Positions 42,617 through 64,000 are shown, counted from the stretch's first letter. The stretch: DNA of 64,000 nucleotides from Planctomycetota bacterium (GCA_043803805.1 JAZDJP010000031.1:1222-65221), one strand, 5' to 3'. A program made the numbers and translations. The notes: generated from the sequence alone by a model not told the origin.

Positions 42617-42631
42617 TGACCTGTTCTTGGC

Positions 42632-43023: not shown

Positions 43024-43112
43024 CGAACCCCGTCGTCCGCTTTCTCGCCGCCGATAAACTTCGCCATACGGCGTCGCTACGGACTCGGCGTGTCACACGG
43101 TAGACACGCCGT
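43024..43112 (+). repeat. 89-bp direct repeat, copy 2
   Basis: See copy 1. The copies are separated by 248 bp of purine-rich, low-complexity DNA. Confidence 0.85.
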
Positions 43113-43374
43113 TGGCTGGTTTGCATCCGTCCCGGTTCGCGGCCGTCGGAAACGTCCCTGCGTTATTCCCTGGGTGGCGACTCGGGTGGCGGTTCGCCGG
43201 GGCGCGCCTCAACGACATCCTGTCGTCTCGGCGCTCGACGCGTTCGCGCCTCCCGGCATCCTGCCTCCGGCGCGCCCGCGACGCCCGGCTCACCACCCCC
43301 CTCGCCGCCATTCCCGCAGATGCGCCGCGAGAGATATAATAAAATAATTGGGAAGCGGGACCCCACCCCCGGGG

Positions 43375-43410
43375 ACCCCTCCCCGTCATCACAGTAAAGA
43401 ACGGGGAGGG
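43375..43410. other. Perfect 11-bp stem hairpin CCCCTCCCCGT-N14-ACGGGGAGGGG
   Basis: Seen directly; it lies about 70 nt upstream of the SIR2-like start. Confidence 0.6.
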
Positions 43411-43482
43411 GTAAAATCATGATGGATGTGTTGCCACCGTCTGGAGAAGGTGATAACATCCCGTAAGGAACAGTCGCAGACG

Positions 43483-44505: not shown

Positions 44506-44644
44506 CAAACATGCACCCGACCGCCACAAGGGGCGCGACGGCGGGAGATGCCCCAGTTGTTATGCTTCCAACATGAGTCACCTTATTCATCGGATACAAT
44601 AGGAACCTGAATCCGCCATCGGCATTTGAGGGAGGAGCGCGCGT

Positions 44645-45373
44645 ATGATGAATCGAAAACTTTTTCTGCCGATGTTGGGAATCCTTCTGCCGGTCGCCCT
44701 GGCCGTCGGGGCGGCTGAATTCGTGGGATCGCGCCAGAGGAACACCGTTCACGACCCTTCCTGCGAGTGGGCGCAGAAAATCATCCCGCGAAACCGGGTG
44801 ACGTTCCCGTCCGTCGAGGAGGCCGTCACGGCCGGGTATCGTCCCTGCGGCACATGCCTTCCCAACGCGGCGACACCCCCTTCCGGGGACACCCCGGCCC
44901 CGACGCCGGACGGCGGCGAATCGGCGCCTTCCGCCACGGAGGAAGCGGTGGCCAATCTCTCCGGGGCGACGATTTCCAGTTGGGGACGCGCCGTGACGGT
45001 GACCGACGGGGACACCCTGGTGATGGACGACGGAAAACGGAAATGGAAGGTGCGCCTTCACGGCATCAACACGCCGGAAAAGGGGGAACCGGGCGCCGCC
45101 GAGGCCAAACAGGCGCTGGCGGACCTCGTCCTGGAGAAGCCGATTTTTCTGCTGTTCGAGGAACGGAAAAAGGACGGTTACAACCGCCTCCTCGCCTACG
45201 TGTACGTGATCGGCGGAAACACGGACCTCGTCTCGGTCGCCGCCCGCCTTCTCGCCGCCGGACGGGCCAAGGTGTACCTCAAATACCCCTGCATGTTCCA
45301 ATCCCAGTTTCTCCTCCTCGAAGAGGAGGCCCGGAGGGCCGGGATTGGAATCTGGGCGGGGGACGGGAAATAA
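44645..45373 (+). CDS. Secreted thermonuclease (SNase) with an N-terminal Ada-like Cys4 Zn motif
   Basis: Signal peptide MMNRKLFLPMLGILLPVALAVGA. HDPSCEWA...YRPCGTC. SNase core VTDGDTL...VRLHGINTPEKGEPG...YNRLLAYVY. Confidence 0.8.
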   Translation: MMNRKLFLPMLGILLPVALAVGAAEFVGSRQRNTVHDPSCEWAQKIIPRNRVTFPSVEEAVTAGYRPCGTCLPNAATPPSGDTPAPTPDGGESAPSATEEAVANLSGATISSWGRAVTVTDGDTLVMDDGKRKWKVRLHGINTPEKGEPGAAEAKQALADLVLEKPIFLLFEERKKDGYNRLLAYVYVIGGNTDLVSVAARLLAAGRAKVYLKYPCMFQSQFLLLEEEARRAGIGIWAGDGK

Positions 45374-48196: not shown

Positions 48197-48291
48197 CGGC
48201 GTCTCCTTTGCAACGGCATTTCGATTTATCTCAAGCCCCGCCCAGCACGTTACGATATATAATCGGGAGGCGAAGGCGCGTCAACATAAAA

Positions 48292-49188
48292 ATGCCTGCA
48301 TTCCATCATAAAAAAAGTCCGGCCTCCCTCAACGGGTTGACCGTCAAGCCGTTGAAACCGCGTTTCACCGCCTCCCCCACCCGGCGCGGCTCCTGGAGGC
48401 AGGTGGCGCTCTTGGCGTCGCTTCTGGCGGCCGGGGCGTGCACCCGCCAGCCCAAGGAAACCTGGGACTACACGAAGGAACGGACCGTCCGCTTCAAGAT
48501 GATTCCCGCCCCGGAATGGATGCGCCAGCGGGAGGCCGACGCCCGGGCGGGCTTTCTCACATCCCCCTTCCGGCTCGAACGGGACATGATCCTCTCCCTC
48601 ACCCTCATGCAGGATGCCGCCTACGCCAAGGAATCGAAGTACCGCGTCGGGCCCGACGGGATGGTGGACTTCCCCCTCATCGGGCGCCTCACGGTGGAAG
48701 GCCTGACGCCGGCGGAACTGAAGGGGCTCCTGACGGAAAAACTGAGCCGTTTCTACCGCAACCCCGAGATGGTCCTGAACCTGGAACCGGCCACGCTGGA
48801 CCGGCCCGACACCTCCACCTCGGTGGCCGTGTTCGGGGAGTCGAAAGGTTCCGGGTTGTACACCTACACCGGCCGGAAGACCGTGATCGACGCCATCGCC
48901 TCCTCGGGCGGATTCTCCGCCGACTCCAACTGGCGGTCCGTCGGAGTCATCCGCCGCTGGAAAGGGGAGGACGTCATCATCGTGGTGGACGCCGAGGCCC
49001 TTTTCAAACGCGGCGACCTCCGCCAGAACATTTCGCTGGAGAACGGGGACATCCTTTACATCCCGCGCGAGCCCGACACGATGGGCGAGCGATTCCTCCA
49101 CGACTGGGACCTCTTCATCCATTATATGAGCGGGATCCAGCAGACGGACGGCGCCTATCAGCAATTTGACGGCCGCTTCCGCCGCTGA
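48292..49188 (+). CDS. Polysaccharide export protein (Wza-like, Poly_export + SLBB)
   Basis: Lipoprotein-like signal LLASLLAAGAC. YRVGPDGMVDFPLIGRLTVEGLTPAELKGLL is a Poly_export motif. Confidence 0.75.
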   Translation: MPAFHHKKSPASLNGLTVKPLKPRFTASPTRRGSWRQVALLASLLAAGACTRQPKETWDYTKERTVRFKMIPAPEWMRQREADARAGFLTSPFRLERDMILSLTLMQDAAYAKESKYRVGPDGMVDFPLIGRLTVEGLTPAELKGLLTEKLSRFYRNPEMVLNLEPATLDRPDTSTSVAVFGESKGSGLYTYTGRKTVIDAIASSGGFSADSNWRSVGVIRRWKGEDVIIVVDAEALFKRGDLRQNISLENGDILYIPREPDTMGERFLHDWDLFIHYMSGIQQTDGAYQQFDGRFRR

Positions 49189-49263: not shown

Positions 49264-51333
49264 ATGGATCTTCGTGATTACATCAAGGTCCTCCGACGGC
49301 ACAAGTGGACCGTCGCGGGGGTGATGCTCCTCACCCTCCTCTTTCACACGTTTGTCCTGAACGTCGCCCAGACCGTCCGGTACGAGTCCTCCGCGCGCGT
49401 CCTCATCCGCCAGATCCCCACCCAGGACATTCTCGTTTTCCAGATGTCGGAACAGCAGCCCACAGGGGTGTCCTACAGCACTCGGATCGCCCTCATCACA
49501 AGCAACCCCGTCCTCGAGGATGCCCGGAAGGCCCTCCTCCCGAAATACCCCGATGTCGTCGTCGCCGACCTCCGCCAGGACCTCATCGTCCAGGAGGAGA
49601 AGGGGACCCAGTTCGTGCGGATCATCGCCACGACGACCGACCCCCGGCGCTCCCAGGATTTCGCCAACGCCGTGGCCGAGGCATTCGTCCGATACGACAC
49701 CCAGAGCGCCCGGAAGGCCCTCGAGAACGCCATCCGTTTCACCGAAGATCAGATTCGCGTCACCAACGAGCGCTTCCGGGAGGTCGAGCAGAAGATCGCC
49801 AAATTTTCCCTCGGCGAGAAGGTCTACAGCGTGGACGAGCAGATCCGCACCCGCATCCAGCGGCTCACGGACCTCGAGCAGGCGAAAATCCAGGCCGAGA
49901 TCGAACTGGCCCAGACGGACCGGATGATTCTTGAGAAGCGGGGGATCCTTTCCGCGCCGGAGCGCCACCCGGACGCCCCGCTCCCCCAGACGCCCGCCAT
50001 CACGTCGCTCAAGGCGCGCGCCGCGGACCTGGAAGTGGCCCTGGCGACGGGGCAGAACGTCTACACCCCCGAGCACCCGCGGATGAAGGAACTCACGGAC
50101 GAACTCGCCGGCATCCGCCGCCAGCTCGCGGGAAACATCCGGCGCCTCGGGGTCCAGGAGGAGATCGGCCAGTTCGCGATCCAGCGGGACATCGCGCGAA
50201 CGAAGATCGCCACCCTCACCGAGACCATCCGCCGGGAGGATGACCGTCTGGCGCACTTCTCCGGAAAAAAGATCGACTATCTGCGTCACGAACGGCTCGC
50301 GAACATGCTGGAGAAAACCATCGTCAATCTCCAGACCTCGCTCGAAGAACTCCAGCTGAAACGCTCCCTCACCGCCGATAACGTCGAGGTTCACGAGATC
50401 GCCCGCGAGAGCGCGCCCCTCCGCAAGATCGGCATGGAGACCCTGCCGTTCATCATCATCCTCGCGGTCATCGTGGGCGTCTCCTCGGCCTATCTCATCG
50501 AGTACCTGAACGACACCATTCGCAGCCCCCACGACGTAAAGCAGTTTCTGAACCTGCCGCTTCTGGGCTCCATCCCGCGGGAACGCGGCGACATCCTCCT
50601 CCACCGGGTCGCGACCAAATCGCCGCTCGCGGAACTCTACCACGCCCTGGCGACATTTCTGGAGGCCTACGCCCTGGAGCATGCCGTCAAGGCCTTTGTC
50701 ATCGCGAGCACCAAGAGCCAGGAGGGGAAAAGCACCGTCTCCACGAATCTGGCCATCGCGCTCGCCCAGGGCGGGGAGCACGTCATCCTCGTGGACGCCG
50801 ACCTGCGGCGCTCGCAGATCCACAAATTCTTCGCCCTCGACAACGCGGCGGGCCTGGCGACCGTGCTGTCGGGCGAATGGGAGGCGGAGACGCTTCTCCG
50901 GAAGATGCGCGGTCCCGGCGCGCCCCCCGATCCCCGGCCCGTCCCCCTCCAGGCCACCTCCGTGCCGGGGCTTCAGGTGCTCACCACCGGGCCGCTCCCG
51001 CCCAACCCGGTGAATCTCCTCAAGTCCGCGCGCATGAAAACCCTCCTCGAACAATTGAAAAGCCAGGCCGACATCGTCCTCATCGACACTCCCCCCATGA
51101 CGGCCGTCATTGACGGCGGCATCCTGGCGTCGCTGGCCGACGCCGCCGTCCTCGTCGTCGGCGAAGGAGAAACCTCCCGCCACGAAGCCGCCCAGACCAA
51201 GCACGCCCTCGCCCAAGTGAACGCCCGCATCACGGGCGTCATCCTCAACAAGGTTCACCTCTTCGGCCAGGACTACTATTATTACTACAACTATGGCAAG
51301 GGGCCGCGGGAGGAGAGCGCCCTGCGGCGCTGA
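49264..51333 (+). CDS. Wzc/GumC-like chain-length determinant fused to a BY-kinase (ParA/MinD-fold) domain
   Basis: N-terminal Wzz region with a TM, a long coiled-coil, a second TM, then Walker A STKSQEGKSTVSTNLA, VILVDADLRR and LIDTPP. There is a Tyr-rich C-terminal segment (DYYYYYNY) followed by a short tail. Confidence 0.8.
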   Translation: MDLRDYIKVLRRHKWTVAGVMLLTLLFHTFVLNVAQTVRYESSARVLIRQIPTQDILVFQMSEQQPTGVSYSTRIALITSNPVLEDARKALLPKYPDVVVADLRQDLIVQEEKGTQFVRIIATTTDPRRSQDFANAVAEAFVRYDTQSARKALENAIRFTEDQIRVTNERFREVEQKIAKFSLGEKVYSVDEQIRTRIQRLTDLEQAKIQAEIELAQTDRMILEKRGILSAPERHPDAPLPQTPAITSLKARAADLEVALATGQNVYTPEHPRMKELTDELAGIRRQLAGNIRRLGVQEEIGQFAIQRDIARTKIATLTETIRREDDRLAHFSGKKIDYLRHERLANMLEKTIVNLQTSLEELQLKRSLTADNVEVHEIARESAPLRKIGMETLPFIIILAVIVGVSSAYLIEYLNDTIRSPHDVKQFLNLPLLGSIPRERGDILLHRVATKSPLAELYHALATFLEAYALEHAVKAFVIASTKSQEGKSTVSTNLAIALAQGGEHVILVDADLRRSQIHKFFALDNAAGLATVLSGEWEAETLLRKMRGPGAPPDPRPVPLQATSVPGLQVLTTGPLPPNPVNLLKSARMKTLLEQLKSQADIVLIDTPPMTAVIDGGILASLADAAVLVVGEGETSRHEAAQTKHALAQVNARITGVILNKVHLFGQDYYYYYNYGKGPREESALRR

Positions 51334-51421
51334 ACTCCGTTATGAATCATCCTGAGCGGGATTTCATCGAGACGTTATTTCCTGTAGTCCCCGCGCCACC
51401 GCCCGTCTATAATACCCGTCC

Positions 51422-53047
51422 ATGAAATTGGAGTTCCCCACGTTCCGAGCCTGGCGGGACCGGGCTCTCGGCCGCCGCGAGGCCGGCGATGACGACCGCA
51501 TCCACCGCATCCCGGTGGACCGGATCCACCAGAACCCCTACCAGCCCCGCAAGGTGTTCGTGGACGAGGAACTGGAGGAGTTGCAGGGATCCATCCGCGA
51601 ATACGGCGTCATCGTCCCCATCATCGTCCGCGCGATTGAGTCCGGCTACGAACTGGTCTGCGGGGAACGGCGTCTCCGGGCGAGCCGGCTCCTGGGGCTC
51701 CCGACCATCCCCGCCATCATCCGGAAACTCTCGACCCCGGAGATCCTCGAGGTGGCCTTCCTCGAGAACCTCCAGAGGGTGGACTTCAACCCCGTCGAGG
51801 AGGCCGAGACCTACGAGCGCCTCCGCCAGGAATTCTCGCGCCTCACCCGGGAGGAACTCGGACACAAGATCGGGAAATCCCCCGATCGCATCACCGAGAG
51901 GCTCTGGATCCTCGAACTCGCGCCCGTCCTCCGGCAGGCCCTCCTCACCCGGATGATCACGGAGGACCACGCCCGGCTCCTCAAGGCCATCCGCGACGAG
52001 GAACGGCTTCTCCCTCTTATCGAACGGGTGTTCCGCGGGAAGGCGTCGTCCGGGGAACTGCAGAGGCTCCTCGCGGCGGAGAGCGCCCCCGCCCCGGGCG
52101 CACCGTCCGTCCCCCTGCCTTCCGGGGAGGCTCCACCCCCCCCGCCGCGGGTTCCCGACTTCGACGCGCCGCTCCTGGCGGACGTCCGGCGGCTCCTGGG
52201 ATCTTTCACGGGGAACGGCGCTCCGGACATGGCCCTGGCGGACGCCCTCGTCCGAAGCCTTCTCGGGGGACTCGACGAGGATCCCGCGCTTGTCCTGGAT
52301 CTTTCCCTCGCGTCCCGCGACATCGGCGCCCCCCCGGATTTCGCAACGGGGCACCTCCCGCGCCATGTCCTGAACGTCGCGAAACTCGCCCTGCACCTGG
52401 GCCGCCATCACGGTCTCGACGCAAACGCGCTGACCGCCCTCGGGCGGGCCGCGATCCTCCACGACCTCGGCATGAGGAACCTCCCGGCGAGCCTCGTCGG
52501 CAAGCCGGGGCGCCTGGACGCCGCCGAGGCGGGAATCCTCCACCGCCATCCCGCGGAAGGGGCGGCGCTTCTGGCGCGACTCAAACTCCTCGATCCGGAA
52601 CTCACTCGCGCGGTGTCCGAGGAGCACGAGCGCGCCGACGGCAGCGGCTACCCGATGGGGCTCAAGGGCCCCGACATCCACGTATTCGCGAAAATCATCG
52701 GCATCGCCGACACCTACGAGGCCCTCGTCTCGCCGCGGCCCCACCGCGGGGCCATGCTCCCGCGGAAGGCCATGGAACTCCTCGTTTTCGCCGCCCACCA
52801 CGGGCGGTTCGAGAAACCGTTCATCCGGAGTTTCCTCCGCGGGATGTCCCTCTTTCCCCTCGGGAGCTTCGTGCGTCTGTCCACCGGCGAGACCGGACGG
52901 GTCGTCGCGGCCAACCCCGACGACATCACCCGTCCGGTGGTTCGGATCCTGCGCGATGCCGGCGGGACGGCGCCGGCGGCCCCGGTCGTACGAGACCTGC
53001 TCCGCGAAACGGCCGTGAGCGTCACCGCGGCCATGCGGAGCGCGTGA
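51422..53047 (+). CDS. ParB/Srx N-terminal domain + HTH fused to an HD-GYP domain
   Basis: IPVDRIHQNPYQPRK, VCGERRLRASRL, FLENLQRVDFNPVEEA, TREELGHKIGKSPDRITERL. Then LHDLGM ... HRHPAEG ... EEHERADGSGYPMGLKG ... IADTYEAL. Confidence 0.8.
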   Translation: MKLEFPTFRAWRDRALGRREAGDDDRIHRIPVDRIHQNPYQPRKVFVDEELEELQGSIREYGVIVPIIVRAIESGYELVCGERRLRASRLLGLPTIPAIIRKLSTPEILEVAFLENLQRVDFNPVEEAETYERLRQEFSRLTREELGHKIGKSPDRITERLWILELAPVLRQALLTRMITEDHARLLKAIRDEERLLPLIERVFRGKASSGELQRLLAAESAPAPGAPSVPLPSGEAPPPPPRVPDFDAPLLADVRRLLGSFTGNGAPDMALADALVRSLLGGLDEDPALVLDLSLASRDIGAPPDFATGHLPRHVLNVAKLALHLGRHHGLDANALTALGRAAILHDLGMRNLPASLVGKPGRLDAAEAGILHRHPAEGAALLARLKLLDPELTRAVSEEHERADGSGYPMGLKGPDIHVFAKIIGIADTYEALVSPRPHRGAMLPRKAMELLVFAAHHGRFEKPFIRSFLRGMSLFPLGSFVRLSTGETGRVVAANPDDITRPVVRILRDAGGTAPAAPVVRDLLRETAVSVTAAMRSA

Positions 53048-53130
53048 GAAGAAAGTGGATGGAGGACGGTGGATAGTTGATAGTGAATCGTTCATAGAAG
53101 AAAGATCAAGGATTCAAGGACTTATCAATG

Positions 53131-53272
53131 CCCCTCATGGTGAGCCCATCCACAATTCCGCTCATGGTGAGTCCTTCGACTCACTCCGCTCGCTCAGGAC
53201 AGGCCCTGTCGAACCATGAGCAGCGCCCTGGCTCATCCTTCGACTGGCTCAGGATGAGCGGATTGATCCCGA
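53131..53272. repeat. Cluster of REP-like palindromes (CTCATGGTGAG, GTCGAACCATGAGC, GCTCATCCTTCGAC...CAGGATGAGC)
   Basis: Reverse-complement copy of 16788-16850 plus two CCGCTCATGGTGAG units. Translates as the ...MVSPS...LSNHE-type peptide strings seen in many genomes. Confidence 0.75.
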
Positions 53273-53345
53273 TTTTACGACCAAGAGTCTATTCGCCATC
53301 CGATCCTCGCACTATCCACTATCCACTATTCACTTCTCACCCCCG

Positions 53346-54710
53346 ATGAGATTTTTCCGAACATGGTTTGAACCCTTCTCCCGCCGGGAGAAAATCCCCG
53401 CCGGCGGGATCGAGGAAATCCGGGAGATCCCCCTCGGGGAGATTTCCCCCAACCCCTATCAGCCCCGGAAATTTTTCGACCCGGACGAACTGACCGCCCT
53501 GGCGGACTCCATCCGGACCCACGGGGTGATCGTCCCCATCATCGTCCGGAAGGTGGACAGCGGCTACGAGACCATCGCGGGCGAGCGGCGCATCCGCGCC
53601 TGCCGCCGTCTCGGGCGAAAAACCATCCCGGCCATCGTCCTCCGGCTCAACATGCCCGGCACGCTCGAGGCCTCCTTCATCGAAAACATCCCGAGGGGCC
53701 GTCCTGTCGCGGGCGGCGACGGGTGGGACATCGAATCCCTCCGGCGGGAATTCTCCGCCCCCCCGGGCGCGCGGACCGGCGCGCCACCGCCGTCGGCTCC
53801 GCCGGATCCCCTGTCGGAGGAACTGGCCACCGCCGTAAAACACCTGTATTCCGTGCGCCCCGGATCCCCCGTGGATCGGACGGAGGCCCGTCGGACGGCG
53901 GAAAAACTCCTCGCGGAAACCCGCCTCAATCGAATGCCCCTCAATGAGTTGCGCCAAAACACAACGCCCGGAGATTTTCTCCCCCGCCATGCTCTCGGCA
54001 GAGCGGCCATCGCGCTCCGCATCGGAATGGCCCACGGACTCCCGGAAACGGATCTTCGGAATCTCGGCGAGGCCGCGCTCCTCCACGACATCGGGATGAC
54101 GGCGGCGCCGGAAAGAATCATCCACAAGCCGGGCCCCCTGTCCGAGGAGGAATGGGATATCGTCCGCGCCCACTCCGAGCAGGGTGTCGCGATGCTCACC
54201 ATGGAAGCGACGCATATGTCGCCCCCGCGGGAGGACGCCGACGCGATCCTCCGCCGGGTCGTCGCCGAGACCCACGAACGCAGCGACGGCAGCGGCTATC
54301 CCGGAGGCCTCGCCGGAGACGCCATCCACCCCTTTGCGAAAATCACCGCCCTGGCGGATGCGTACGCGGCCCTCACCGCGGCGCGTCCCTGGCGCGCGGC
54401 CTGGCCCCCCGCCACGGCGATCGGGTACATTCTCTACGCGGCCCTCCGCGGGCATTTCGACAAGACCTCCGCCGGACGGCTCGCCCAGGCGTTGTCGCTT
54501 TACCCGATCGGCAGCGCCGTCCGGATTTCCACCCGCGAAACGGCCACGGTCGTCGCGGCCAACCCCGGCGACATCGCCCGGCCCGTGGTGCGCGTGGAAC
54601 GGGATCCAAAGGGGAATCCCGTCGAGCCCCCGCGTCTCCGGGATCTCGCCATCGAAAAAGATGTCTCTATTGCGCGCGGAATCGGCGTCGACGCGGAGAG
54701 CCCCGCATGA
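53346..54710 (+). CDS. ParB/Srx N-terminal domain (no recognisable HTH) fused to an HD-GYP domain
   Basis: IPLGEISPNPYQPRK, IAGERRIRACRR, a Pro-rich linker, then LLHDIGM ... RAHSEQG ... ETHERSDGSGYPGGLAG ... LADAYAAL. Confidence 0.75.
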   Translation: MRFFRTWFEPFSRREKIPAGGIEEIREIPLGEISPNPYQPRKFFDPDELTALADSIRTHGVIVPIIVRKVDSGYETIAGERRIRACRRLGRKTIPAIVLRLNMPGTLEASFIENIPRGRPVAGGDGWDIESLRREFSAPPGARTGAPPPSAPPDPLSEELATAVKHLYSVRPGSPVDRTEARRTAEKLLAETRLNRMPLNELRQNTTPGDFLPRHALGRAAIALRIGMAHGLPETDLRNLGEAALLHDIGMTAAPERIIHKPGPLSEEEWDIVRAHSEQGVAMLTMEATHMSPPREDADAILRRVVAETHERSDGSGYPGGLAGDAIHPFAKITALADAYAALTAARPWRAAWPPATAIGYILYAALRGHFDKTSAGRLAQALSLYPIGSAVRISTRETATVVAANPGDIARPVVRVERDPKGNPVEPPRLRDLAIEKDVSIARGIGVDAESPA

Positions 54711-54874
54711 AGATCCTCAAATGGAGGGTTCTCGCCGTCCTGATCATCCTCGCGGCCATCGCCACGGGCATCTACGTGCTGTTGATTTCCGAGAAAATCA
54801 ACCGTTACTGGCTGGACCACTCCGTCGTCCGCATCCCCCGCGGGCTCCCGCCTGACCGGAATGACCGGCCGTGA
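54707..54874 (+). CDS. 55-aa single-TM protein translationally coupled (ATGA) to the second ParB::HD-GYP gene
   Basis: MKILKWRVLAVLIILAAIATGIYVLLI... Confidence 0.4.
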   Translation: MKILKWRVLAVLIILAAIATGIYVLLISEKINRYWLDHSVVRIPRGLPPDRNDRP

Positions 54875-54980
54875 GACCGCGGGACATCCCCGGGGCAATC
54901 ATCGGACGCGGGACCGCGCCCCCATCCATGAAGGGCGATGGAAAAATCGCGAACCCGCGCTCCAGCCGTCTGGCTTTTCG

Positions 54981-55018
54981 CCACGAATAGGGTATCATTC
55001 CACGAATAGGGTATCATT
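54981..55018 (+). repeat. Perfect 19-bp tandem duplication CCACGAATAGGGTATCATT x2 abutting the start codon
   Basis: Copies at 54981-54999 and 55000-55018; the ATG is at 55020. Confidence 0.85.
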
Positions 55019-55019
55019 A

Positions 55020-57044
55020 ATGAACAGCCCCATGAACACCCCCTTCCGAATTCGATTTTCGGTGTTTATCGCGACTGTCCTCGCGGCAGGTTCCGCGCTG
55101 GCCCTCTGGTCCGACAGCGCCTCCGTCGGCGACCCGGTCGTCGTGTGGAACGACGTCCAGAATAATCCCGCCGCCGTGAGCGACGGCGCCGGGGGCGTCA
55201 TCGTCGCCTGGCAGGACGCGCGAAGCGGCGCCGACAACGACATCTACGCCCAGCGGGTGACCGCAACGGGCCCGCAATGGACCGCGGGAGGCATTCCCGT
55301 CGTGACGCTCGCCCAGGACCAGGCGAACCCGGCGGCGGTGTCCGACGGGGCGGGCGGCGTCATCATCGGCTGGCAGGACTTCCGGAGCGGCGCCGACAAC
55401 GACATCCATGCCCAGCGGCTGGATTCCGACGGAAACGCCCTCTGGACCGCCAACGGCGTCCTGGTGACGGGGGCGATCTCCCATCAGGAACTGCCGAAGA
55501 TGATCGCCGACGGCGCGGGCGGGGCCATCCTCGCCTGGCGGGATTCCCGGGGCGGCGTCACCTCGGACATCTATGCCCAGCGCCTCGACGCGGACGGCAA
55601 TCCCCTGTGGACCGCCGACGGCGTCGCCGTGTGCGCCGCCGCCGGCGATCAGGACAAGCCCGTCCTCGTGTCCGACGGCGCGGGCGGGGCCGTTGTGGCA
55701 TGGACGGATCTGCGCGGAGCCGACCGCGACATTTACGCCCAGCGCCTCGACGCGGACGGCAATCCCCTGTGGGCCGCCGACGGCGTCGCCGTGTGCGCCG
55801 CCGCCGGCGATCAGGATCTCCCCGCGATGGTCCCCGACGGCGCGGGCCGGGCGATCGTCGCCTGGCAGGATTACCGGAACGGCGGCGACAACGATGTGTA
55901 CGCCCAGCGCATGAACCCCGTAGGCGCCGCCGACTGGGCGGCGAACGGCATTGCGCTGAGCGCCGCCGCCGGCGATCAACAATCCCCCATCCTCGTCTCC
56001 GACGGCGCCGGAGGGGCGATCGCGGCCTGGCAGGATTATCGGAGCGGCGCCAACAACGACATCTACGCCCAGCGGGTGAACACCTCCGGAGACGTTCTGT
56101 GGACGGCCGGCGGCGTCGCCGTGTCGGCGGCCGCGGGGGAGCAGCGAAATCCCGCCGGAATTTCCGACGGGGCCGGCGGCGCGATCATCGCCTGGCGGGA
56201 CGCGCGGAGCGGCGCCGACGACATTTACGCCCGGAAAATCGGCGCCGACGGCGCCGCCGCCTGGACCGCCGACGGAAACGCCGTCGGTTCCGCCGCAGGA
56301 AATCAACAAGCCCCCGCTCTCGTCCCGGACGGCGCCGAAGGCGCGATCGCGGTCTGGGAGGACCTCCGGAGCGGCACGGAGGACATCTACGCCGCGCGAA
56401 TCCACGCAAGCGGGCTCCTCGGAAGTCCGCCGCCGGCCCCGTCGGGACTTTCCGCCGCGGCCGACTCCGACACCCGGGTGAATCTTTCCTGGACCGACAA
56501 TTCCACCGACGAAACCGGATTTCGGATCGAACGGAGTTCCGACAACATTACGTTCACCGCCGACGGCACGACCGCGGCCGGCGACACGACCTACACAAGC
56601 CCAAACCTTTCCCCCTCCACCGCAACGTATTTCCGCGTGGCGGCTTATAATGGAAAGGGCGATTCGTCCCCCACCGCCGTCGCCAACGCCCTCACGCGTC
56701 CCTCCGCGCCGACGGGACTCACGGCCACCGCCGCCTCCGATTCCGCCGTCAACCTCGCTTGGACAAACGGCTCCGCCCACGACGGCCTTCACGTGGAACG
56801 AAGCACCGGCGGGGATTATTCGGAAATCGCCGCGCCGGACGCCGATATCACCACCTTCGCGGATACCGGTCTTTCTCCCTCCACCACCTACACCTACCGC
56901 CTCCGCGCACACAACGCCAGCGGGTTTTCCGCTTATTCGACAGTCTCTGACGCAACGACGGACAATATCCCGACCGTCGGAACAGGAACAGGAACAGGAA
57001 GTGGAGGCGGTTGCTTTATCTCCTTGCTGAAAAAACAAAAATAG
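55020..57044 (+). CDS. Secreted protein with 9 x ~55-aa repeats, two FN3-like domains and a Gly-rich GGGCFISLL C-terminal tail
   Basis: Signal peptide FSVFIATVLAAGSALA. The repeat consensus is SDGAGG.I.AW.D.R.G...DIYAQR....G...W...G. FN3-like segments LSWTDNSTDETGFRIERS and LAWTNGSAHDGLHVERS. Ends GTGTGTGSGGGCFISLLKKQK. Confidence 0.7.
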   Translation: MNSPMNTPFRIRFSVFIATVLAAGSALALWSDSASVGDPVVVWNDVQNNPAAVSDGAGGVIVAWQDARSGADNDIYAQRVTATGPQWTAGGIPVVTLAQDQANPAAVSDGAGGVIIGWQDFRSGADNDIHAQRLDSDGNALWTANGVLVTGAISHQELPKMIADGAGGAILAWRDSRGGVTSDIYAQRLDADGNPLWTADGVAVCAAAGDQDKPVLVSDGAGGAVVAWTDLRGADRDIYAQRLDADGNPLWAADGVAVCAAAGDQDLPAMVPDGAGRAIVAWQDYRNGGDNDVYAQRMNPVGAADWAANGIALSAAAGDQQSPILVSDGAGGAIAAWQDYRSGANNDIYAQRVNTSGDVLWTAGGVAVSAAAGEQRNPAGISDGAGGAIIAWRDARSGADDIYARKIGADGAAAWTADGNAVGSAAGNQQAPALVPDGAEGAIAVWEDLRSGTEDIYAARIHASGLLGSPPPAPSGLSAAADSDTRVNLSWTDNSTDETGFRIERSSDNITFTADGTTAAGDTTYTSPNLSPSTATYFRVAAYNGKGDSSPTAVANALTRPSAPTGLTATAASDSAVNLAWTNGSAHDGLHVERSTGGDYSEIAAPDADITTFADTGLSPSTTYTYRLRAHNASGFSAYSTVSDATTDNIPTVGTGTGTGSGGGCFISLLKKQK

Positions 57045-57110: not shown

Positions 57111-57380
57111 GTGCCGACCATATCCATGTTCTTCGGCATCATTGTGTCCATGTACTTCATGGACGGGAAACGTCACAAACGACCGCACATACATGTCCGG
57201 TATCAAAACGATGAAACCGTGATCGCGATCCCCGAGGGCGACGTGTTGGAGGGGACACTCCCCCCCGGCAAGATGAGACTGGTTCTCGCGTGGATCGAAA
57301 TCCACAAGGATGATTTGCTGGCGGACTGGCAACTTGCGTTGAGCGGCCAAACACCGTTCAAAATAGAACCCTTGCGGTGA
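57111..57380 (+). CDS. DUF4160 family protein
   Basis: The N-terminus MPTISMFFGIIVSMYFMDGKRHKRPHIHVRY is characteristic. GTG start after AAGGAGA. Confidence 0.8.
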   Translation: MPTISMFFGIIVSMYFMDGKRHKRPHIHVRYQNDETVIAIPEGDVLEGTLPPGKMRLVLAWIEIHKDDLLADWQLALSGQTPFKIEPLR

Positions 57381-57383
57381 AAC

Positions 57384-57629
57384 GTGAATCCACGCGTCAA
57401 GTCGGTCGTACCCAAAGAGGATTACACGTTGGAAATCACCTTCTCCAACGGAGAGGGCGGCGTCTTCGCGTGTGCCCCTTTTCTAAATTTTGGCGTTTTC
57501 CAAGAACTCCGGGATATCCGATACTTCACACAGGCGTGTGCATCGGGCGGAACCGTCGTCTGGCCTCATGGGCAGGACATTTGTCCCGATACCCTCTATG
57601 AAGATTCCAGAAAACTCGCATCGAAATAA
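57384..57629 (+). CDS. DUF2442 family protein
   Basis: PRVKSVVPKEDYTLEITFSNGE... is typical of the family. It sits 3 nt after the DUF4160 stop, the usual two-gene cassette. Confidence 0.8.
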   Translation: MNPRVKSVVPKEDYTLEITFSNGEGGVFACAPFLNFGVFQELRDIRYFTQACASGGTVVWPHGQDICPDTLYEDSRKLASK

Positions 57630-57636
57630 TTCTTGT

Positions 57637-57777
57637 CGAATCGGCAACAACGCCGGCGGTTATTCCGCCTATTCAACCACGATCACCGCAACAACCACGA
57701 CCGCCGCAACAACGGAAACGGTCGAAGGGAACGGGGGCGGAGGAGGCTGCTTTATCTCCTTGCTACCGAAGGAATGA
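57637..57777 (+). pseudogene. 3' fragment of a paralogue of the 55020 gene (only the FN3 end + GGGCFISLL tail)
   Basis: Reads ...NNAGGYSAYSTTITATTTTAATTETVEGNGGGGGCFISLLPKE*, compared with ...HNASGFSAYSTVSDATTDNIPTVGTGTGTGSGGGCFISLLKKQK*. The 20-nt GGCTGCTTTATCTCCTTGCT is conserved. Confidence 0.55.
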
Positions 57778-58027: not shown

Positions 58028-61000
58028 ATGAGTCACAGCGGCACCCCCCACGATGACTTCCTGACCACCTCGGATGTGGCGGGAATGATCGGCGTCACCC
58101 AGGCGACGGTGCTGGAAGCCATCCACCGGCACGATTTAAAAGCCCACCGCACCCCCGGCGGCCATCACCGCGTGTCCAAATCGGAAACCGCCCGGTTTTT
58201 AAAGACGCTCGGCATGGCGCCGGACATCCGCCCCCGGATGCCGGGTGTCGTCAAAATCATCGTACTGGCGTGCTCCCTCCTCTTTCCCGCCGCCGCGCCG
58301 CAGGCCGCCTCGACATCGCTCCGCCCCAATGTGGACACCACCACGGCGAATTGGACCGAAGCCGTCGGCGGCGGCGGGTTCTATGAGGACATCAACGACG
58401 ATCCCGATGCCGCCAACGACGCCGATTACATTCAGGGCCAGAACAAAACGGACTTGAGTTCCATGTTCGAACTCACGAATACCCCCGCCGATTTCGCCGA
58501 CGCCACGTCCGTAGACATCAATTTCCGCCACATGGAAAACTCCACCGGCAACGACACGATCAACATGTATTACCAGATTTTCGAGTCCGATGGCGTCACG
58601 GCCATCACCGCCGAAAGCGCCGTCCGCCTGGCGCCGGCAGGGGCGTGGGAAACGGTCAGCCGCAACGTGGCGATCACGGGAACCAATATCAAAACCACGT
58701 GGAACGGGGCCAAAATCCGCATCCGCCAAGATTACACCTCGAATCCGCCCGCCGATGGAACCTCCCAGGTCCGCGTCTCCGCCATCGAGGCAAACATCAC
58801 CTACACCCCCACGTTCATCTGGACGGGGGGCGGCGACGGAAGCAACTGGAACGACACCAACAACTGGAGCGCCCCGGAGGCGGGCGAGTACCCCGGCCAG
58901 GACGATACAACTGACATCGCCTACATAGAGGGCAACTACTCCGTCACCGCCAACGCGAGCGTCACCGTCGGCGCCATCAAGCTTGACGCCGGATCCACCA
59001 TCACGATGAACACCGGGATCACCCTGACGGTTTCCGACGACATCATCGTCCTGAACAACGGCGACGGCGAGGCCCTGATCACCGGGGAAGGAACCCTCAA
59101 GTGGACCGTCGTCGCCGCCGGGACCCCCGCCCTCACGTTTCAGGACTCGGACGGATCCGACACCCTGAAAATCTCCAACCTCACCATGGACGATTCGGCC
59201 ACCGCCGGCGCCACGATCACGCTGGCCGGCACCACCAGCGTCACCATCACGGGCAACCTGACGCTGAACATCGCCGACAACGCCACGGCCCTCTCCATTC
59301 CCAACACCTTCAACTTCAAGGTCCAGGGATCCTTCGTGTGGACGAACGGCAACATCCTGTTCGGCACCAGCAACGCCAACGCCGCGACGCTGGAACTGCC
59401 CTCCATGACCATCCCCGCGACGGCCTCTCTCGTCGTCCAGGGGAACACCGCCCCCGTGTACATCCGCGGCGATCTCACCATCAACGGCACCCTCGATCTC
59501 CAGGGCGATACCATGCCCTTCGACGTCGGCGGCCACTGGATCCACAACAACGGCGCCACGCTCTCCAACATCACGTCGGCCGTCATCATTCTCTCGGGAG
59601 GCGGCCAGGAAATCCGGGGAACGGACGCGGTCGGAACGCCGTTCGGCAACCTCCAGATCACCGGCAACATCACCCTGAACAGCACCGCGATGGCCATCAC
59701 CTGCGCCAACTACTTCCAGATCAACGCGGGCGGGACGTTCAACTTCGGAAGCGGCTCCGTCACCATCACTGGAGCAGATCCGAACGGCATCTTCACCAAC
59801 AAGGGCACCGTGAACCTCAACACAGGCACCCTCACCGTTTCGAATAACTGGATCGACGACGGCACATTCAACGCCGGGACCGGAACGGTGATCGTCAACA
59901 CGGGCGACGGAGTGGAGATCGGCGGCACCTCCGACATCCACACCTTCTGGAACTTCACCGTCAACAAGAACATCGGGGCCTTCTGCGACGTCCAGTCCGG
60001 GGACAGTCTCGTGGTGAACGGGCTCCTCTACGTCCAACGGGGCATTCTCCGTTGCAACAACTCCAACGACAGCATGACGCTGAACGGAACCCCGACCAGT
60101 TTCCGGATGGCCGACGACGCGAACGCCGAATTCCGGGCCCGCACCGGCGGCAGCAACCCCACGCTGGCCTGCGCCGGCGACTTCACCCTGGACGGGGCCG
60201 GCAACGGCAAGTTTCGAATGCTGTACGGCACCATCACATTCAACGGCGCCACCGACTCCACCATCACCACCCCCAACCCGGCCAATGACACCCGTGATTT
60301 CGCCAACGTGGTCGTCGCCAAGACCGGCACGGGGCGGGTGATCCTGAACTCCGCGATCCGGGTCGACGGCTCGATCGGCGGCGATCTCACCATCAACAAC
60401 GGACTCCTGGTCTTTGGAGCGAATACCGTCAACCTGACGGGCAACTTCTCCAACCTCGCCGCCGACGCCGGCGAGGGCTTCGACGCCTCGAACGCCGCCT
60501 CGGCGCTCACCTGGATCGGCCTCACCGGCGCCACCCGGGACCTCAACACGGGCGAGGACCCCCTCAACATTCTGACCGTCACCGGCGCCGATGCCACCGC
60601 CACCCTGCGCCTCACCAGCCCCATCGAGGTCGGCGCGGCGGCGCCCGCCGTCACCGCGTTGAGCGTCACGGCCGGGAATCTCGACCTGAACGGATACGTC
60701 GTGTCCGTCGAGGCGGGGGAAAAATTCGAGTTTAATTCAAACGGCGGCACCCTCACCGCCGCCACCGACGGCAGCGGCTTCACCCGCCGGGGGGCGAGCG
60801 GAACGTTTTCGTTTGAATTCAAACAGGGCATCATCAACATCACCAGCCTCACGTTCTCCAGCGCCGACAACAACGGATTTTACGTCAACGCCAGCGGCGC
60901 CGTCACGTTCACCAACTTCGACAATGTGAGATTCACCAAGGGCACCACCACCCACATGAAGATCGGCCTGAACGGCGGCGCCATCACCTACACCGACGCC

Positions 61001-64000
61001 ACCTGGGTGGGCCATTCCTACGATTACAACACGGATTCCCCGGACATCCCCACCGGCGACGTCGGCAACCCGTACAACGTCACCACGGTCGCCGGGACGG
61101 CCGGCGCGGTCACCCTGAACGCATTCACGGGCGACGGGGCGGGAAACAACGTGGCGGCGACCGCGGAATCGAACGACGACGACAACGGCGGGGTGGGAAG
61201 AACCAACATCATCTGGGACGACACCCAGGTCATCCTGACGGGCACGTTCGACGGCACGACCGACGTCGCGTGGGCGAAAAACGGCGTCTGGCAGGCGACC
61301 TACGTCGTCAACTCCTCCCCCTACTCCTTCAATGTCACGGGAAACATCGCCGCGGGCGATGTCATCACCATCTACTACAACAATAATGCGGCTGGCACGG
61401 ACTCCGCTTACGTGACGAAGGCCACGGGCGCCAGCATGTCGGGTTTGAACCTCGTCGCGAACCAGGTCTGGGTGGGCAATCACGGCGGCGCGGCGCTCAC
61501 GAACGCCGATCTGGACCTCTTCGACAACGACGGAGGGGGCGACGACGCCGACATCCCCTTCGTCGTCGCGGGCGGGAACCTGACACTGGACGCCGGGTTC
61601 CAGATGGTTGTCGCCGCCTCCCAGGTTTACACCCCCGGCGGCAACATCACCTGGTCGGCCGCCAACGACGCCAATGTCGTCACGGCGAACGGCGCCCTGA
61701 ACCTCAACGCCAACACAATCACGACGGGTACCGCGCTCACCGTGAACAGCACCGGTGCGTTCGTCCTCACGACCGGCGCCGCGACGTTCAACCGCGACTC
61801 CGCCGCCTGCGTCGTCACCGTGAACGGCGCCCTTGATTTCGGCGCGAGCGGCGCCCTGAACGCGGGATTCAGTTTCACCGCCAACGCCACCGCCACGTTC
61901 ACCCCCGGCGGGGGGACGCTCACGATGACGGGCACCCGGGACAACGCCATCCTGGGCGGGACGAAAAACACCATTTCCGTCTATAACCTCGTCATCAACA
62001 AGACCGACGCCGCCGACACCGTGACCGTCGAGGACAACGACACCATCGCCGTCGGCGGAACATTCACCCTTACCAACGGTGAATTCCAGATGAACGCCGG
62101 CGAGACGCTGGATATCGAGGGAGACATCTCCATCCCGAACAGCGCCAATTCCTGGTTCAACATCACCGGGGCCGCGGCCAACATCTACGTCGGCGGAAAC
62201 ATCACCTGCGGCGCGGCGGGGAAATTCGACGTGGACGGCGGCGTTCTGACGTTCGATGGATCGAACGACGCCACCGTGGATACGGCGGCACCGGGAGGCG
62301 ACCGCGACTTCTTTGACGTCATCATCGCCAAGACCGGCGGCGCCAAGGTCACCCTGAACTCCAATGTGGACATCAACCGGTCCCTTGCCATCAACTCCGG
62401 ACTTTTCGATTCCGACAACCGGACGCTGAACGTCGCCACCCACTTCACCAACAACGCCACGGGCGCCGACGGATTCGACTTCAGCGACGCCGCGACGATC
62501 ATCGTCTTCGACGGCGCGAGCACCCAGAATATCACCTCGGGGGGCGACCCCTTCAACATCGTCTCGAAGACGGGCGTGGGCGCCATGACCTTGATTGACG
62601 CCATGACCGTGGGAACGGGGATCGGCGTCGGGGACTCCCTCTCCGTCACCGCCGGGATGCTCAACCTGAACGGCCAGACCCTCGCCATCCAGTCGGGCAC
62701 CCGGTTTCTCTTCTCCTCCAACACCGCCACACCAAACGGGGCGCTTCGCTCCACCTCATCATCCTCCACCATCACCCGGAGCGGCGCGGGGACCTGGACC
62801 ATGCTCTTCGAGGAAGGGCAGGTGGACATCAACGGCATCAACATCTCCTATCTCGGGCCCGGGAACGGGTTTGACATCGTCCCCGCGGGCGGCGGCGTCC
62901 GGGTCCTCCAATTCGACGCCGTGACGTGGTCGAACTGCACCTCCAGCCAGTACATCCGGCTTTCGGGAGCGCCCACGTTCACGGACACGTCCTGGAGCAA
63001 CCATGACCTGCCGGCGGGTCCCACGTTCAACGTGACCACCGTCCTCGGCTCGTCCGGCGGCCCCATCACCATGCTCAACTCCTCCGGGGCTCTCGGCGGC
63101 GCCAACGGCGAGGCCAACGACAGCGAGGCCGGCATCCTCATCAACTGGGCGATCCAAATCACCCTGCAGGGCGCCTGTGACGGGAACACCGACGTCTCCT
63201 GGGCGCTGAACGGCGCCTGGCAGGCGACCTACACGACAAACGCCTCTCCTTTCTCTTTTCCGGGCATCACCAACGTCACCGCCGGGGATCTCATCACCAT
63301 CTGGTACGAGGGCGGCGCCGTCAAGGGGGCCATCGTCACCAAGGCGACCGGGACCAACATGACGGACCTGGATCTCACCGTGAACCGGACCGTCATCCGG
63401 AGCGACAGCCCCGGAAGCAGCGTCACCAACCAGAACCTCGACGACGTCCACACCGGGGACGCCGACATCCCCTGGACCAACGGCACCGGCGCGGCCCTGA
63501 CAATGGCCAACAACATCACCCTGGAGGTTCAAACCGGCCACACCTATATCCCCGGAGGCGCCGTTACCCTCCAGGGAACGGGCTCACTCCGGGCGAACGG
63601 TTCCGCGACCCTCGGGGGTGACGTCACCGCGCCGGGCGGCGTGGTGATCGGAGCATCGGGGGAGATTTCCGCCGGCGCCAACACCATCACCGCCAGCGAC
63701 AACTGGACGAACAACCGGGGGACGGCGGGGTTCGTGGAGGGGACATCGCTCGTCAAGCTGAACTCGGCGGCGCAGGTGACGATGAATGAAACCTTCAACA
63801 ACCTCGAGGTGACGGGCGGAACCCCCTCCGTGGCGGCGGGAAAAAGCGTGTACTGCGTCAATTTCACCATGAACGCGGGGACGAGTTTCACCCTGAACGA
63901 CGACGCCTCCTTCACCTCCACCGGGGCCTTCGCCTGGAGCGCCGGGACGATTTCCGTGGGAACCACGGCGGGGAACGACGCCGGGGTGTTCAGTGTCCCC
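58028..64000 (+). CDS. Giant (>1990 aa, 3'-truncated by the window) Thr/Asn/Gly-rich beta-helix-like surface protein with an N-terminal excisionase-type HTH and a signal/anchor
   Basis: Frame 2 is open from the stop at 57989-91 to position 64000, checked by hand at several points. It is absent from the ORF track, presumably because there is no stop in the window. The track lists only short + ORFs in the other two + frames. N-terminus FLTTSDVAGMIGVTQATVLEAIHRHDLKAHRTPGGHHRVSKSETARFL, then MPGVVKIIVLACSLLFPAAAPQAAS, then repetitive T/N/G-rich sequence with ~2-kb super-repeats. Confidence 0.75.
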   Translation, partial: MSHSGTPHDDFLTTSDVAGMIGVTQATVLEAIHRHDLKAHRTPGGHHRVSKSETARFLKTLGMAPDIRPRMPGVVKIIVLACSLLFPAAAPQAASTSLRPNVDTTTANWTEAVGGGGFYEDINDDPDAANDADYIQGQNKTDLSSMFELTNTPADFADATSVDINFRHMENSTGNDTINMYYQIFESDGVTAITAESAVRLAPAGAWETVSRNVAITGTNIKTTWNGAKIRIRQDYTSNPPADGTSQVRVSAIEANITYTPTFIWTGGGDGSNWNDTNNWSAPEAGEYPGQDDTTDIAYIEGNYSVTANASVTVGAIKLDAGSTITMNTGITLTVSDDIIVLNNGDGEALITGEGTLKWTVVAAGTPALTFQDSDGSDTLKISNLTMDDSATAGATITLAGTTSVTITGNLTLNIADNATALSIPNTFNFKVQGSFVWTNGNILFGTSNANAATLELPSMTIPATASLVVQGNTAPVYIRGDLTINGTLDLQGDTMPFDVGGHWIHNNGATLSNITSAVIILSGGGQEIRGTDAVGTPFGNLQITGNITLNSTAMAITCANYFQINAGGTFNFGSGSVTITGADPNGIFTNKGTVNLNTGTLTVSNNWIDDGTFNAGTGTVIVNTGDGVEIGGTSDIHTFWNFTVNKNIGAFCDVQSGDSLVVNGLLYVQRGILRCNNSNDSMTLNGTPTSFRMADDANAEFRARTGGSNPTLACAGDFTLDGAGNGKFRMLYGTITFNGATDSTITTPNPANDTRDFANVVVAKTGTGRVILNSAIRVDGSIGGDLTINNGLLVFGANTVNLTGNFSNLAADAGEGFDASNAASALTWIGLTGATRDLNTGEDPLNILTVTGADATATLRLTSPIEVGAAAPAVTALSVTAGNLDLNGYVVSVEAGEKFEFNSNGGTLTAATDGSGFTRRGASGTFSFEFKQGIINITSLTFSSADNNGFYVNASGAVTFTNFDNVRFTKGTTTHMKIGLNGGAITYTDATWVGHSYDYNTDSPDIPTGDVGNPYNVTTVAGTAGAVTLNAFTGDGAGNNVAATAESNDDDNGGVGRTNIIWDDTQVILTGTFDGTTDVAWAKNGVWQATYVVNSSPYSFNVTGNIAAGDVITIYYNNNAAGTDSAYVTKATGASMSGLNLVANQVWVGNHGGAALTNADLDLFDNDGGGDDADIPFVVAGGNLTLDAGFQMVVAASQVYTPGGNITWSAANDANVVTANGALNLNANTITTGTALTVNSTGAFVLTTGAATFNRDSAACVVTVNGALDFGASGALNAGFSFTANATATFTPGGGTLTMTGTRDNAILGGTKNTISVYNLVINKTDAADTVTVEDNDTIAVGGTFTLTNGEFQMNAGETLDIEGDISIPNSANSWFNITGAAANIYVGGNITCGAAGKFDVDGGVLTFDGSNDATVDTAAPGGDRDFFDVIIAKTGGAKVTLNSNVDINRSLAINSGLFDSDNRTLNVATHFTNNATGADGFDFSDAATIIVFDGASTQNITSGGDPFNIVSKTGVGAMTLIDAMTVGTGIGVGDSLSVTAGMLNLNGQTLAIQSGTRFLFSSNTATPNGALRSTSSSSTITRSGAGTWTMLFEEGQVDINGINISYLGPGNGFDIVPAGGGVRVLQFDAVTWSNCTSSQYIRLSGAPTFTDTSWSNHDLPAGPTFNVTTVLGSSGGPITMLNSSGALGGANGEANDSEAGILINWAIQITLQGACDGNTDVSWALNGAWQATYTTNASPFSFPGITNVTAGDLITIWYEGGAVKGAIVTKATGTNMTDLDLTVNRTVIRSDSPGSSVTNQNLDDVHTGDADIPWTNGTGAALTMANNITLEVQTGHTYIPGGAVTLQGTGSLRANGSATLGGDVTAPGGVVIGASGEISAGANTITASDNWTNNRGTAGFVEGTSLVKLNSAAQVTMNETFNNLEVTGGTPSVAAGKSVYCVNFTMNAGTSFTLNDDASFTSTGAFAWSAGTISVGTTAGNDAGVFSVP

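Follow-up and report, generated by a model that had tools for sequence, protein, structure and literature searches.

In this work we analysed a stretch of 64,000 nucleotides from a Planctomycetota bacterium (GCA_043803805.1, JAZDJP010000031.1:1222-65221; hereafter the window, with positions counted from its first letter), in which two tandem genes, here called gene 1 and gene 2, each join an N-terminal ParB_N domain to an HD-GYP domain (Table 1). Two such fusions, lying on the same strand after Wza-like and Wzc-like genes, had been described in an earlier reading of the sequence by a model (the original prediction), and this description is borne out by the open reading frames (ORFs), by Pfam matches of ParB_N and HD_5 over their cut-offs and, for the upstream genes, by Poly_export/SLBB and Wzz/TIGR01007 matches.

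Domain architecture and rarity of the fusions

Both genes have a gene-like G+C content at third codon positions (GC3), 0.87 for gene 1 and 0.81 for gene 2, the G+C content (GC) of the window being 63%. Gene 1 matches ParB_N at residues 26-118 (E 4e-31), HTH_ParB, with its helix-turn-helix (HTH), at 121-218 and HD_5 at 314-463, while gene 2 matches ParB_N at 23-115 and HD_5 at 219-374 (both E 2e-27) and has no Pfam match to HTH_ParB. The ParB_N (PF02195) scores given in Table 1 compare with a cut-off of 26.3 bits, and the HD_5 scores of 100.8 bits (gene 1) and 96.6 bits (gene 2) with one of 27.2. The score of the NCBIfam parB_part domain model is over its cut-off as well, and the Noc model TIGR04285 reaches 176.5 bits for gene 1 and 102.5 bits for gene 2, below its cut-off of 315.

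Table 1. Coordinates of the two fusion genes, their domains and their neighbours in the window (AF2, AlphaFold2; pLDDT, predicted local distance difference test; TM, transmembrane segment; REP/MITE, repetitive extragenic palindrome/miniature inverted-repeat transposable element).
Feature	Position	Strand	Evidence and remarks
Wza-like outer-membrane polysaccharide export lipoprotein	48208..49188	+	Poly_export E 1.4e-13, SLBB_2 E 3e-10
Wzc-like bacterial tyrosine kinase (BY-kinase): N-terminal Wzz, ParA/MinD-fold kinase, C-terminal YYYYYNY	49264..51333	+	TIGR01007 172.5 bits
Spacer between wzc and gene 1, 88 bp	51334..51421	+	Sequence
Gene 1, ParB_N-HTH_ParB::HD-GYP fusion	51422..53047	+	541 aa; AF2 mean pLDDT 89.6
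Gene 1 ParB_N (CTPase fold), aa 26-118	51497..51775	+	Pfam 107.2 bits; QPRK, GERRLRA, ENLQR
Gene 1 ParB-type HTH, aa 121-218	51782..52075	+	HTH_ParB E 2e-16; recognition helix GKSPDRITERLWIL
Gene 1 Pro/Ala-rich disordered linker (aa 219-247), then two stalk helices (aa 248-291)	52076..52351	+	AF2
Gene 1 HD-GYP module, aa 311-463	52352..52810	+	HD_5 E 9e-29; mapped on PmGH 4MCW
Gene 1 C-terminal five-stranded β domain, aa 481-538	52862..53035	+	AF2 strands 483-538, pLDDT >90
Spacer between the paralogues, 298 bp	53048..53345		REP/MITE-like hairpin and short CCACTAT direct repeats
Gene 2, ParB_N::HD-GYP fusion without HTH	53346..54710	+	454 aa; AF2 mean pLDDT 85.6
Gene 2 ParB_N, aa 23-115	53412..53690	+	Pfam 95.6 bits; QPRK, GERRIRA, ENIPR
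Gene 2 HD-GYP module, aa 219-374	54000..54467	+	HD kept, Lys to Met, first HHE His to Thr
Gene 2 C-terminal β domain, aa 391-446	54516..54683	+	AF2
Single-TM ORF, 55 aa	54707..54874	+	Start overlaps gene 2 stop (ATGA); GC3 0.86
Secreted β-propeller-repeat/fn3 protein	54861..57044	+	fn3 E 4e-19; tail GGGCFISLLKKQK; start likely ~55020

As paralogues, the two genes share 50% identity in ParB_N and 45% in the HD-GYP domain plus C-terminus. The AF2 model of gene 1 (alignment of 85 sequences; predicted template modelling score 0.66) shows an α/β ParB_N, a helical HTH, a disordered linker (pLDDT about 55 at residues 221-240), two stalk helices (248-260 and 270-286), a helical HD-GYP domain and a five-stranded β domain, and the model of gene 2 has a similar fold with a disordered stretch at the position of the HTH. 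The best Foldseek matches in the PDB were apo-Noc (7NFU), ParB-parS (6T1F) and KorB for the N half, and DvhD's HD-GYP domain with c-di-GMP (cyclic di-GMP; 9RBZ), PA4781 and PmGH for the C half, and the β domain carries a (Y/F)PxG(S/T)xV motif that is frequent among HD-GYP relatives. The ParB C-terminal dimerisation domain (PF23552) gave no match in either gene; in this fusion family it is replaced by the stalk, a non-canonical HD-GYP domain and the small β domain, which fill the C-terminal half. The proteins thus share with the ParB (Spo0J) and Noc clamps (6SDK, 6T1F, 7NFU) the ParB_N fold with its QPRK, GERRxR and ENLQR boxes and, in gene 1, the HTH, at 38-41% identity over about 190 residues, and they likewise are encoded downstream of a gene for a ParA/MinD-fold ATPase; unlike the clamps, they have an HD-GYP domain in the dimerisation position, and neither a canonical ParA nor parS is found in the window.

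The fusion is rare. A word-indexed search of 5.8 billion clusters with a single protein found one other protein with both domains, and a word-indexed search with a family profile returned ordinary ParB and HD-GYP proteins only and no fusions. When 1.84 billion representatives at 50% identity were scanned exhaustively with phmmer, 15 more full-length fusions besides genes 1 and 2 were recovered (about 17 clusters), and all fusion representatives come from metagenomes or metagenome-assembled genomes. A metagenome scan for GQRR-type ParB_N yielded 80 loci, three of which are HD-GYP fusions (L022, L039 and L042), and a scan of named genomes with gene 1 gave generic HD-GYP loci only, neither a fusion nor the genome of the window itself. 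No MetRS relative exceeds 52% identity, so the PVC affiliation assumed in the original prediction is putative. The tree of the HD-GYP region is star-like, and single and multiple origins of the fusion are not separable by it.

Regarding the literature, the accessible part of the survey of ParB-CTPase fusions by Kaljevic et al. (PNAS 2025) lists HNH, UPF0020, DUF3850, DUF4417, methyltransferases, CBS, ASCH and MT-A70 as partners and names no HD or HD-GYP domain, while the HD-GYP architecture survey of Galperin and Chou, which describes the fusion of HD-GYP to many kinds of input domain as routine, does not mention ParB. Full-text searches (ParB with HD-GYP, Wzc, tyrosine kinase or exopolysaccharide; BY-kinase with c-di-GMP) found no description of the architecture, in line with the original prediction, which was not aware of a characterised ParB::HD-GYP protein. 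The family is rare and undescribed, and is a variant both of ParB-CTPase fusions and of HD-GYP signalling proteins. As in the fusions covered by that part of Kaljevic et al. (2025), the ParB-CTPase fold is reused as a nucleoside triphosphate (NTP) module with a lineage-specific effector, often orphaned from parA; what differs is that there only the DUF3850 fusion lies consistently beside a parA homologue, and that an HD-GYP effector is not reported in it.

Residues of the ParB_N, HTH and HD-GYP modules

Residues R43, G81, R84 and N116 (gene 1 numbering) are invariant in 18 of 18 aligned fusions. When aligned to Bacillus subtilis ParB-CDP (6SDK) and to Noc (7NFU), all three boxes of gene 1 are canonical, which agrees with the full ParB N-terminal signature and HTH-like segment first described for it. 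For gene 2, the claimed loss of the HTH was confirmed, but the claimed loss of the third box was not, as its ENIPR keeps the E, N and R, including the invariant Asn. The Glu of GERR is retained only in gene 1, gene 2 and one further fusion (P0125), and Gln or another residue takes its place in the other members, so that within the family the CTPase motifs of the window pair are the most canonical ones; most members thereby differ from ParB and Noc in having GQRR or GxRR. Gene 1 is predicted to bind CTP, and we regard this as probable.

The DNA-binding module looks different. In the recognition helix of gene 1 the three canonical contact residues R, N and R are changed to P, E and W, the canonical signature (K/R)SRxxVxNxLRLL is replaced across the family, and the mean net charge of this helix is -0.4 in the family versus +1.9 in 40 canonical ParBs. 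Gene 1 still has the GKS and DHAR elements of the HTH, and gene 2 and P0125 have no HTH at all. No parS site within 3 mismatches occurs in the whole 64 kb, and no convincing palindromic operator was seen in the three spacers scanned. Sequence-specific clamping on DNA at a parS-like site is unlikely.

The HD-GYP residues were mapped on PmGH (4MCW), with the ligand roles taken from Bellini et al. (PMC4159591). Gene 1 keeps H315, H347-D348, H376, H402, D430 and GYP, with M351 in place of the Lys and E401 in place of the first His of HHE. The HD motif reads LHDLGM in gene 1 and LHDIGM in gene 2, and GSGYP is present; the full HHExh(D/N)GxGYP signature is not, the corresponding stretches being EEHERADGSGYP and ETHERSDGSGYP, and both genes have Met for the Lys of HDxGK. 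The HD-GYP domain had been called complete, and in this the original prediction was mistaken. Among the 18 members the equivalents of PmGH H189, D222, H250 and H277 are invariant and that of D305 is kept in 17 (Asn in P0137), the equivalent of K225 is Met or Leu in all 18, and the HD histidine (H221) is replaced in eight but kept in both window genes; at the first His of HHE (H276), gene 1 has Glu, gene 2 Thr and P0125 Val. In PmGH the H276A and K225A substitutions each abolish activity (PMC4159591), and its eighth ligand, E185, varies between subfamilies. In the window genes only part of the metal-ligand motifs is lost, and the loss goes further in 8 of the 18 family members.

A wider "HDxGM" subfamily, with frequent substitutions of catalytic residues, includes the fused HD-GYP domains. 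Since the unfused FHA-GAF-HD-GYP protein of the same window keeps HDVGK and HHHE, the catalytic-residue changes are specific to the fused paralogues, and, with 8 of the 18 members lacking the HD histidine, selection does not maintain catalysis across the family. With residues essential in PmGH replaced as well, the module looks like a sensor or a weak enzyme, which weakens the earlier proposal of cyclic-dinucleotide hydrolysis; judged by its residues, robust phosphodiesterase activity is doubtful for gene 1 and less likely still for gene 2.

Among solved structures, the closest sequence relatives of the module are the active enzymes V-cGAP3 and PmGH. With PmGH (4MCW), PA4781 (4R8Z) and V-cGAP3 (5Z7C) the fusions share the HD_5 domain with its HD, H...H, GYP and terminal Asp at 26-30% identity, but they differ in the Lys (Met or Leu), in the first HHE His of the window genes (Glu or Thr), in the absence of the third-metal carboxylate and in having ParB_N as input instead of REC, GAF or PAS. 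A different comparison is offered by DvhD of Desulfovibrio vulgaris (9RBZ, 9RC0), a non-catalytic HD-GYP receptor of c-di-GMP that dimerises on ligand binding and that also combines an HD-GYP fold of impaired catalytic residues with a helical stalk ahead of the domain. Its ligand-driven dimerisation is a possible way for an HD-GYP domain to stand in for the ParB dimerisation domain. However, DvhD has lost HD (to SQ) and HH (to MN) and keeps the Lys, whereas in the window proteins HD and one His are kept and the Lys is lost, and DvhD, a dCache-PAS protein of the membrane, controls a protease and is not a ParB fusion.

Gene contexts and possible function

The gene upstream of gene 1 is not the parA of a canonical ParABS system but encodes a Wzc-type BY-kinase, as shown by TIGR01007 (172.5 bits, cut-off 108), Wzz (E 1.6e-10), the Tyr cluster and ParA and CbiA matches. 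The Wza-like gene before it encodes a lipobox (LLAAGAC), its real start is probably at about 48289, and its product scores 79 bits with TIGR03027, under the cut-off. An exopolysaccharide export locus had been proposed here, of which the wza-wzc pair stands and the full locus does not: the whole 64 kb yielded no glycosyltransferase, polymerase or flippase, so this is an orphan wza-wzc pair. In the spacer between wzc and gene 1 a scan of the + strand gave no terminator-like site; a weak inverted repeat without a T run spans the wzc stop, and a perfect TATAAT (51408-51413), 8 nt upstream of the gene 1 ATG, could be an internal promoter giving a leaderless or near-leaderless transcript. A REP/MITE-like hairpin, with arms at 53205-53221 and 53231-53247, lies in the 298-bp spacer that separates the paralogues and occurs as a single copy in the window.

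Of the 13 informative contexts in the family, five (the window, L003, L008, L009/10 and L102), from unrelated uncultured bacteria, have a same-strand BY-kinase gene directly upstream. The kinases of four of these are confirmed by TIGR01007 and Tyr tails, with 150 bits and a Tyr-rich tail in L102 (GCA_016206515.1); that of L008 (GCA_029260815.1), separated from the fusion by 12 bp, is divergent, without a Tyr tail and below the cut-off. L003 (GCA_040961615.1) encodes, in this order, Wzc, a 231-aa protein with ParB_N and HTH, Wza and P0125, a fusion lacking the HTH, the intervals between these genes being 6, -4 and 1 bp. The Wza of L003 is 31% identical to that of the window, and because the two Wzc proteins are only about 30% identical, the shared gene order does not come from recent common ancestry. 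The 231-aa protein (8441..9136 of L003; GRRR, ENSHR), standing alone between wzc and wza, resembles an unfused N half of gene 1. In the ParB_N tree every kinase-linked member falls in one half, with gene 1, gene 2 and P0125 grouped together. The kinase link is thus a property of a subclade and not of the family. Members of another subclade (L011, L012/13, L039 and L042) always follow rpmA, near groESL, rpmH or yidC, have no BY-kinase and are surrounded by housekeeping genes of an origin-proximal type. Two PilZ genes (714..1570) diverge from the fusion P0122 in L004, and the neighbours in L005 and L014 are not informative. A convergent radical-SAM/SPASM gene with small ORFs was seen downstream of three fusions (L004, L009/L010 and L022).

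A pairing of this kind has a precedent in Streptococcus pneumoniae, where the BY-kinase CpsD binds ParB with a Kd of about 7 uM, as also seen by co-immunoprecipitation, in a manner modulated by phosphorylation (Nourikyan et al. 2015, PMC4574921). In both cases a ParA-fold BY-kinase of a polysaccharide machine is paired with a ParB-type protein, in the window by gene adjacency; however, in the pneumococcus CpsD pairs with the ordinary chromosomal ParB, whose gene lies elsewhere, while the window has dedicated, fused ParB-like genes beside the kinase. The idea of the original prediction that the fusions are placed like parB behind a BY-kinase gains from this precedent and from the five unrelated contexts, and does not hold as a rule for the whole family, given the rpmA and PilZ contexts.

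To hypothesize, the fusion may be a c-di-GMP-sensing, or weakly hydrolysing, regulator of ParB/Noc type that acts on Wza-Wzc, and this is the explanation we favour, tentatively and by analogy with the systems above. A sensing switch is preferred to a CTP-gated phosphodiesterase because the HD-GYP catalytic residues are replaced, the HTH contacts are lost and there is no parS. The products of genes 1 and 2 would be cytoplasmic accessory regulators of the Wza-Wzc export machine encoded just upstream. Their HD-GYP half would dimerise and bind c-di-GMP, probably as a sensor or slow enzyme, while the ParB_N half would engage itself in an NTP-dependent manner (probably with CTP), as in ParB and Noc, and toggle between open and closed dimers. 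The ParA/MinD-fold kinase domain of Wzc would respond to the state of the switch, as ParB acts on ParA and as pneumococcal ParB pairs with CpsD, and polysaccharide polymerisation and export would track the level of c-di-GMP. The parts of this proposal differ in strength: some functional tie of the fusions to Wza-Wzc is rather likely, while direct contact with the Wzc kinase domain, suggested by analogy, is doubtful, and we would equally hesitate to accept a ParA-independent ParB-type switch that serves as a dedicated partner of Wzc, with CTP and c-di-GMP jointly gating polysaccharide export.

Several observations speak against such a regulator. In eight of the 13 informative contexts no BY-kinase is present, the fusions being rpmA-linked, PilZ-linked or unlinked, so that a kinase partnership cannot be the general function of the family. 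Spacers of 88 and 298 bp and the TATAAT before gene 1 make co-transcription with wzc uncertain, and the conserved ParA-activating LG(R/K)GL motif is absent from the N-terminal peptides of the family, whose amphipathic look is limited to gene 2 and P0121 and is not significant. Kaljevic et al. (2025) show that the nucleotide specificity of ParB folds is not readable from sequence. Finally, six of the seven conserved His/Asp ligands are kept by the window genes, and Glu401 could act as a metal ligand.

The last point leads to the reading in which the HD-GYP domains are active phosphodiesterases of c-di-GMP (or cGAMP), gated by CTP through ParB_N, that keep a local zone of low c-di-GMP at Wzc. 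Conservation of HD, GYP and five further ligand positions in both window genes, HD_5 scores far over the cut-off, active closest relatives, a Glu401 that could still ligate metal and the adjacency of the BY-kinase would all fit; yet we consider it rather improbable, because the K225 equivalent is changed throughout the family and that of H276 throughout the window clade (both needed in PmGH), the HD histidine is missing in 8 of 18 members and the unfused HD-GYP protein of the same genome keeps its catalytic residues. Another reading takes the adjacency to wzc as lineage-specific happenstance, with the fusions serving general c-di-GMP signalling and ParB_N as an NTP-sensing or dimerising input. 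It fits the eight contexts without a BY-kinase, including the rpmA clade, the spacers and possible own promoter of gene 1 and the routine fusion of HD-GYP to diverse input domains. BY-kinase genes number about 1-3 per genome, however, and by a rough estimate on this basis five independent same-strand adjacencies are very unlikely by chance, and in the tight operon of L003 two ParB-like genes alternate with wzc and wza, so we find this reading improbable too.

Transcription factors for polysaccharide genes that depend on c-di-GMP are common, and gene 1 might similarly be a DNA-bound, c-di-GMP-responsive regulator or a KorB/VirB-type sliding clamp on wza-wzc, with gene 2 as its modulator. The HTH_ParB match, the fold matches to ParB-parS and KorB and the retained GKS and DHAR agree with this, but the lost contacts and low charge of the recognition helix, the lack of parS or a convincing palindrome in the sequences scanned and the missing HTH of gene 2 and P0125 make it unlikely. 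Less likely still, at a level we would call slight, is a tether in the manner of Noc, in which NTP would free an N-terminal amphipathic helix for membrane or nucleoid-envelope coupling and so tie export to the cell cycle, a role already suggested for CpsD-ParB. Noc, whose membrane helix is regulated by CTP, gives the best NCBIfam and fold matches, both AF2 models have an N-terminal helix, and the N-terminus of gene 2 (MRFFRTWFEPF) has a hydrophobic moment of 0.80 and five aromatics. Nevertheless, the Noc model scores well under its cut-off (176 against 315), the amphipathic signal is reached by 9% of shuffles and absent from most members, the N-terminal pLDDT is about 44 and DNA binding is doubtful. 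A role in anti-phage defence was also tried and rejected, as PADLOC gave no more than a ParB_N-like part of a methyltransferase model.

If a ParB-type switch is indeed the dedicated partner of Wzc, the partition logic of an ATPase plus its activator would have moved from DNA segregation to an envelope machine. If the favoured regulator of Wza-Wzc is real, the CTP-switch fold, recognised only recently, would be linked to c-di-GMP signalling for the first time, and the isolated pneumococcal observation of a BY-kinase with ParB would become a recurrent, genomically encoded partnership. The two genes thereby supply two defined proteins with which to ask whether a ParB fold can act on a P-loop ATPase other than ParA, whether an HD-GYP domain can be a ligand-controlled dimerisation domain and by what post-translational route c-di-GMP reaches Wzc-type export machines.

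Further features of the window

Downstream of gene 2, the ATGA overlap with a 55-aa single-TM ORF was present as first reported; this ORF has no Pfam match and is not conserved in L003. The β-propeller-repeat/fn3 protein that follows has a signal-peptide-like N-terminus (MNSPMNTPFRIRFSVFIATVLAAGSALA), and its gene may be the last of the unit. Its C-terminal tail, GGGCFISLL(K/P)K, is shared with a short ORF at 57490..57777 and may represent a sorting signal not recognised so far; between the two lies a DUF4160/DUF2442 pair (57111..57629).

Besides genes 1 and 2, the 64 kb contain three further c-di-GMP genes, namely the FHA-GAF-HD-GYP gene with HDVGK/HHHE (5517..7058), a REC-GGDEF-EAL gene (12589..15531) and a CBS-CBS-GGDEF gene on the opposite strand (41447..42463). 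An island of low GC (0.52) at about 29000..38720 contains a PrimPol/AAA_25 gene (34806..36782) and, abutting tRNA-Asp (38644..38719), a tyrosine integrase (37407..38699), and is probably an integrated mobile element. At 38801..45373, a PIF1/RecD-like helicase (PADLOC PDC-S68, typeIV_RecD), a SIR2_2-like gene and an Ada-Zn/SNase gene (PADLOC SNc+LTD) lie around tRNA-Gly and may form a defence-type cluster. At the far end, 58031..64000 (+) is an open frame of at least 1989 aa with a GC3 of 0.88, which runs past the end of the window and has an N-terminal HTH_17 as its sole Pfam match.

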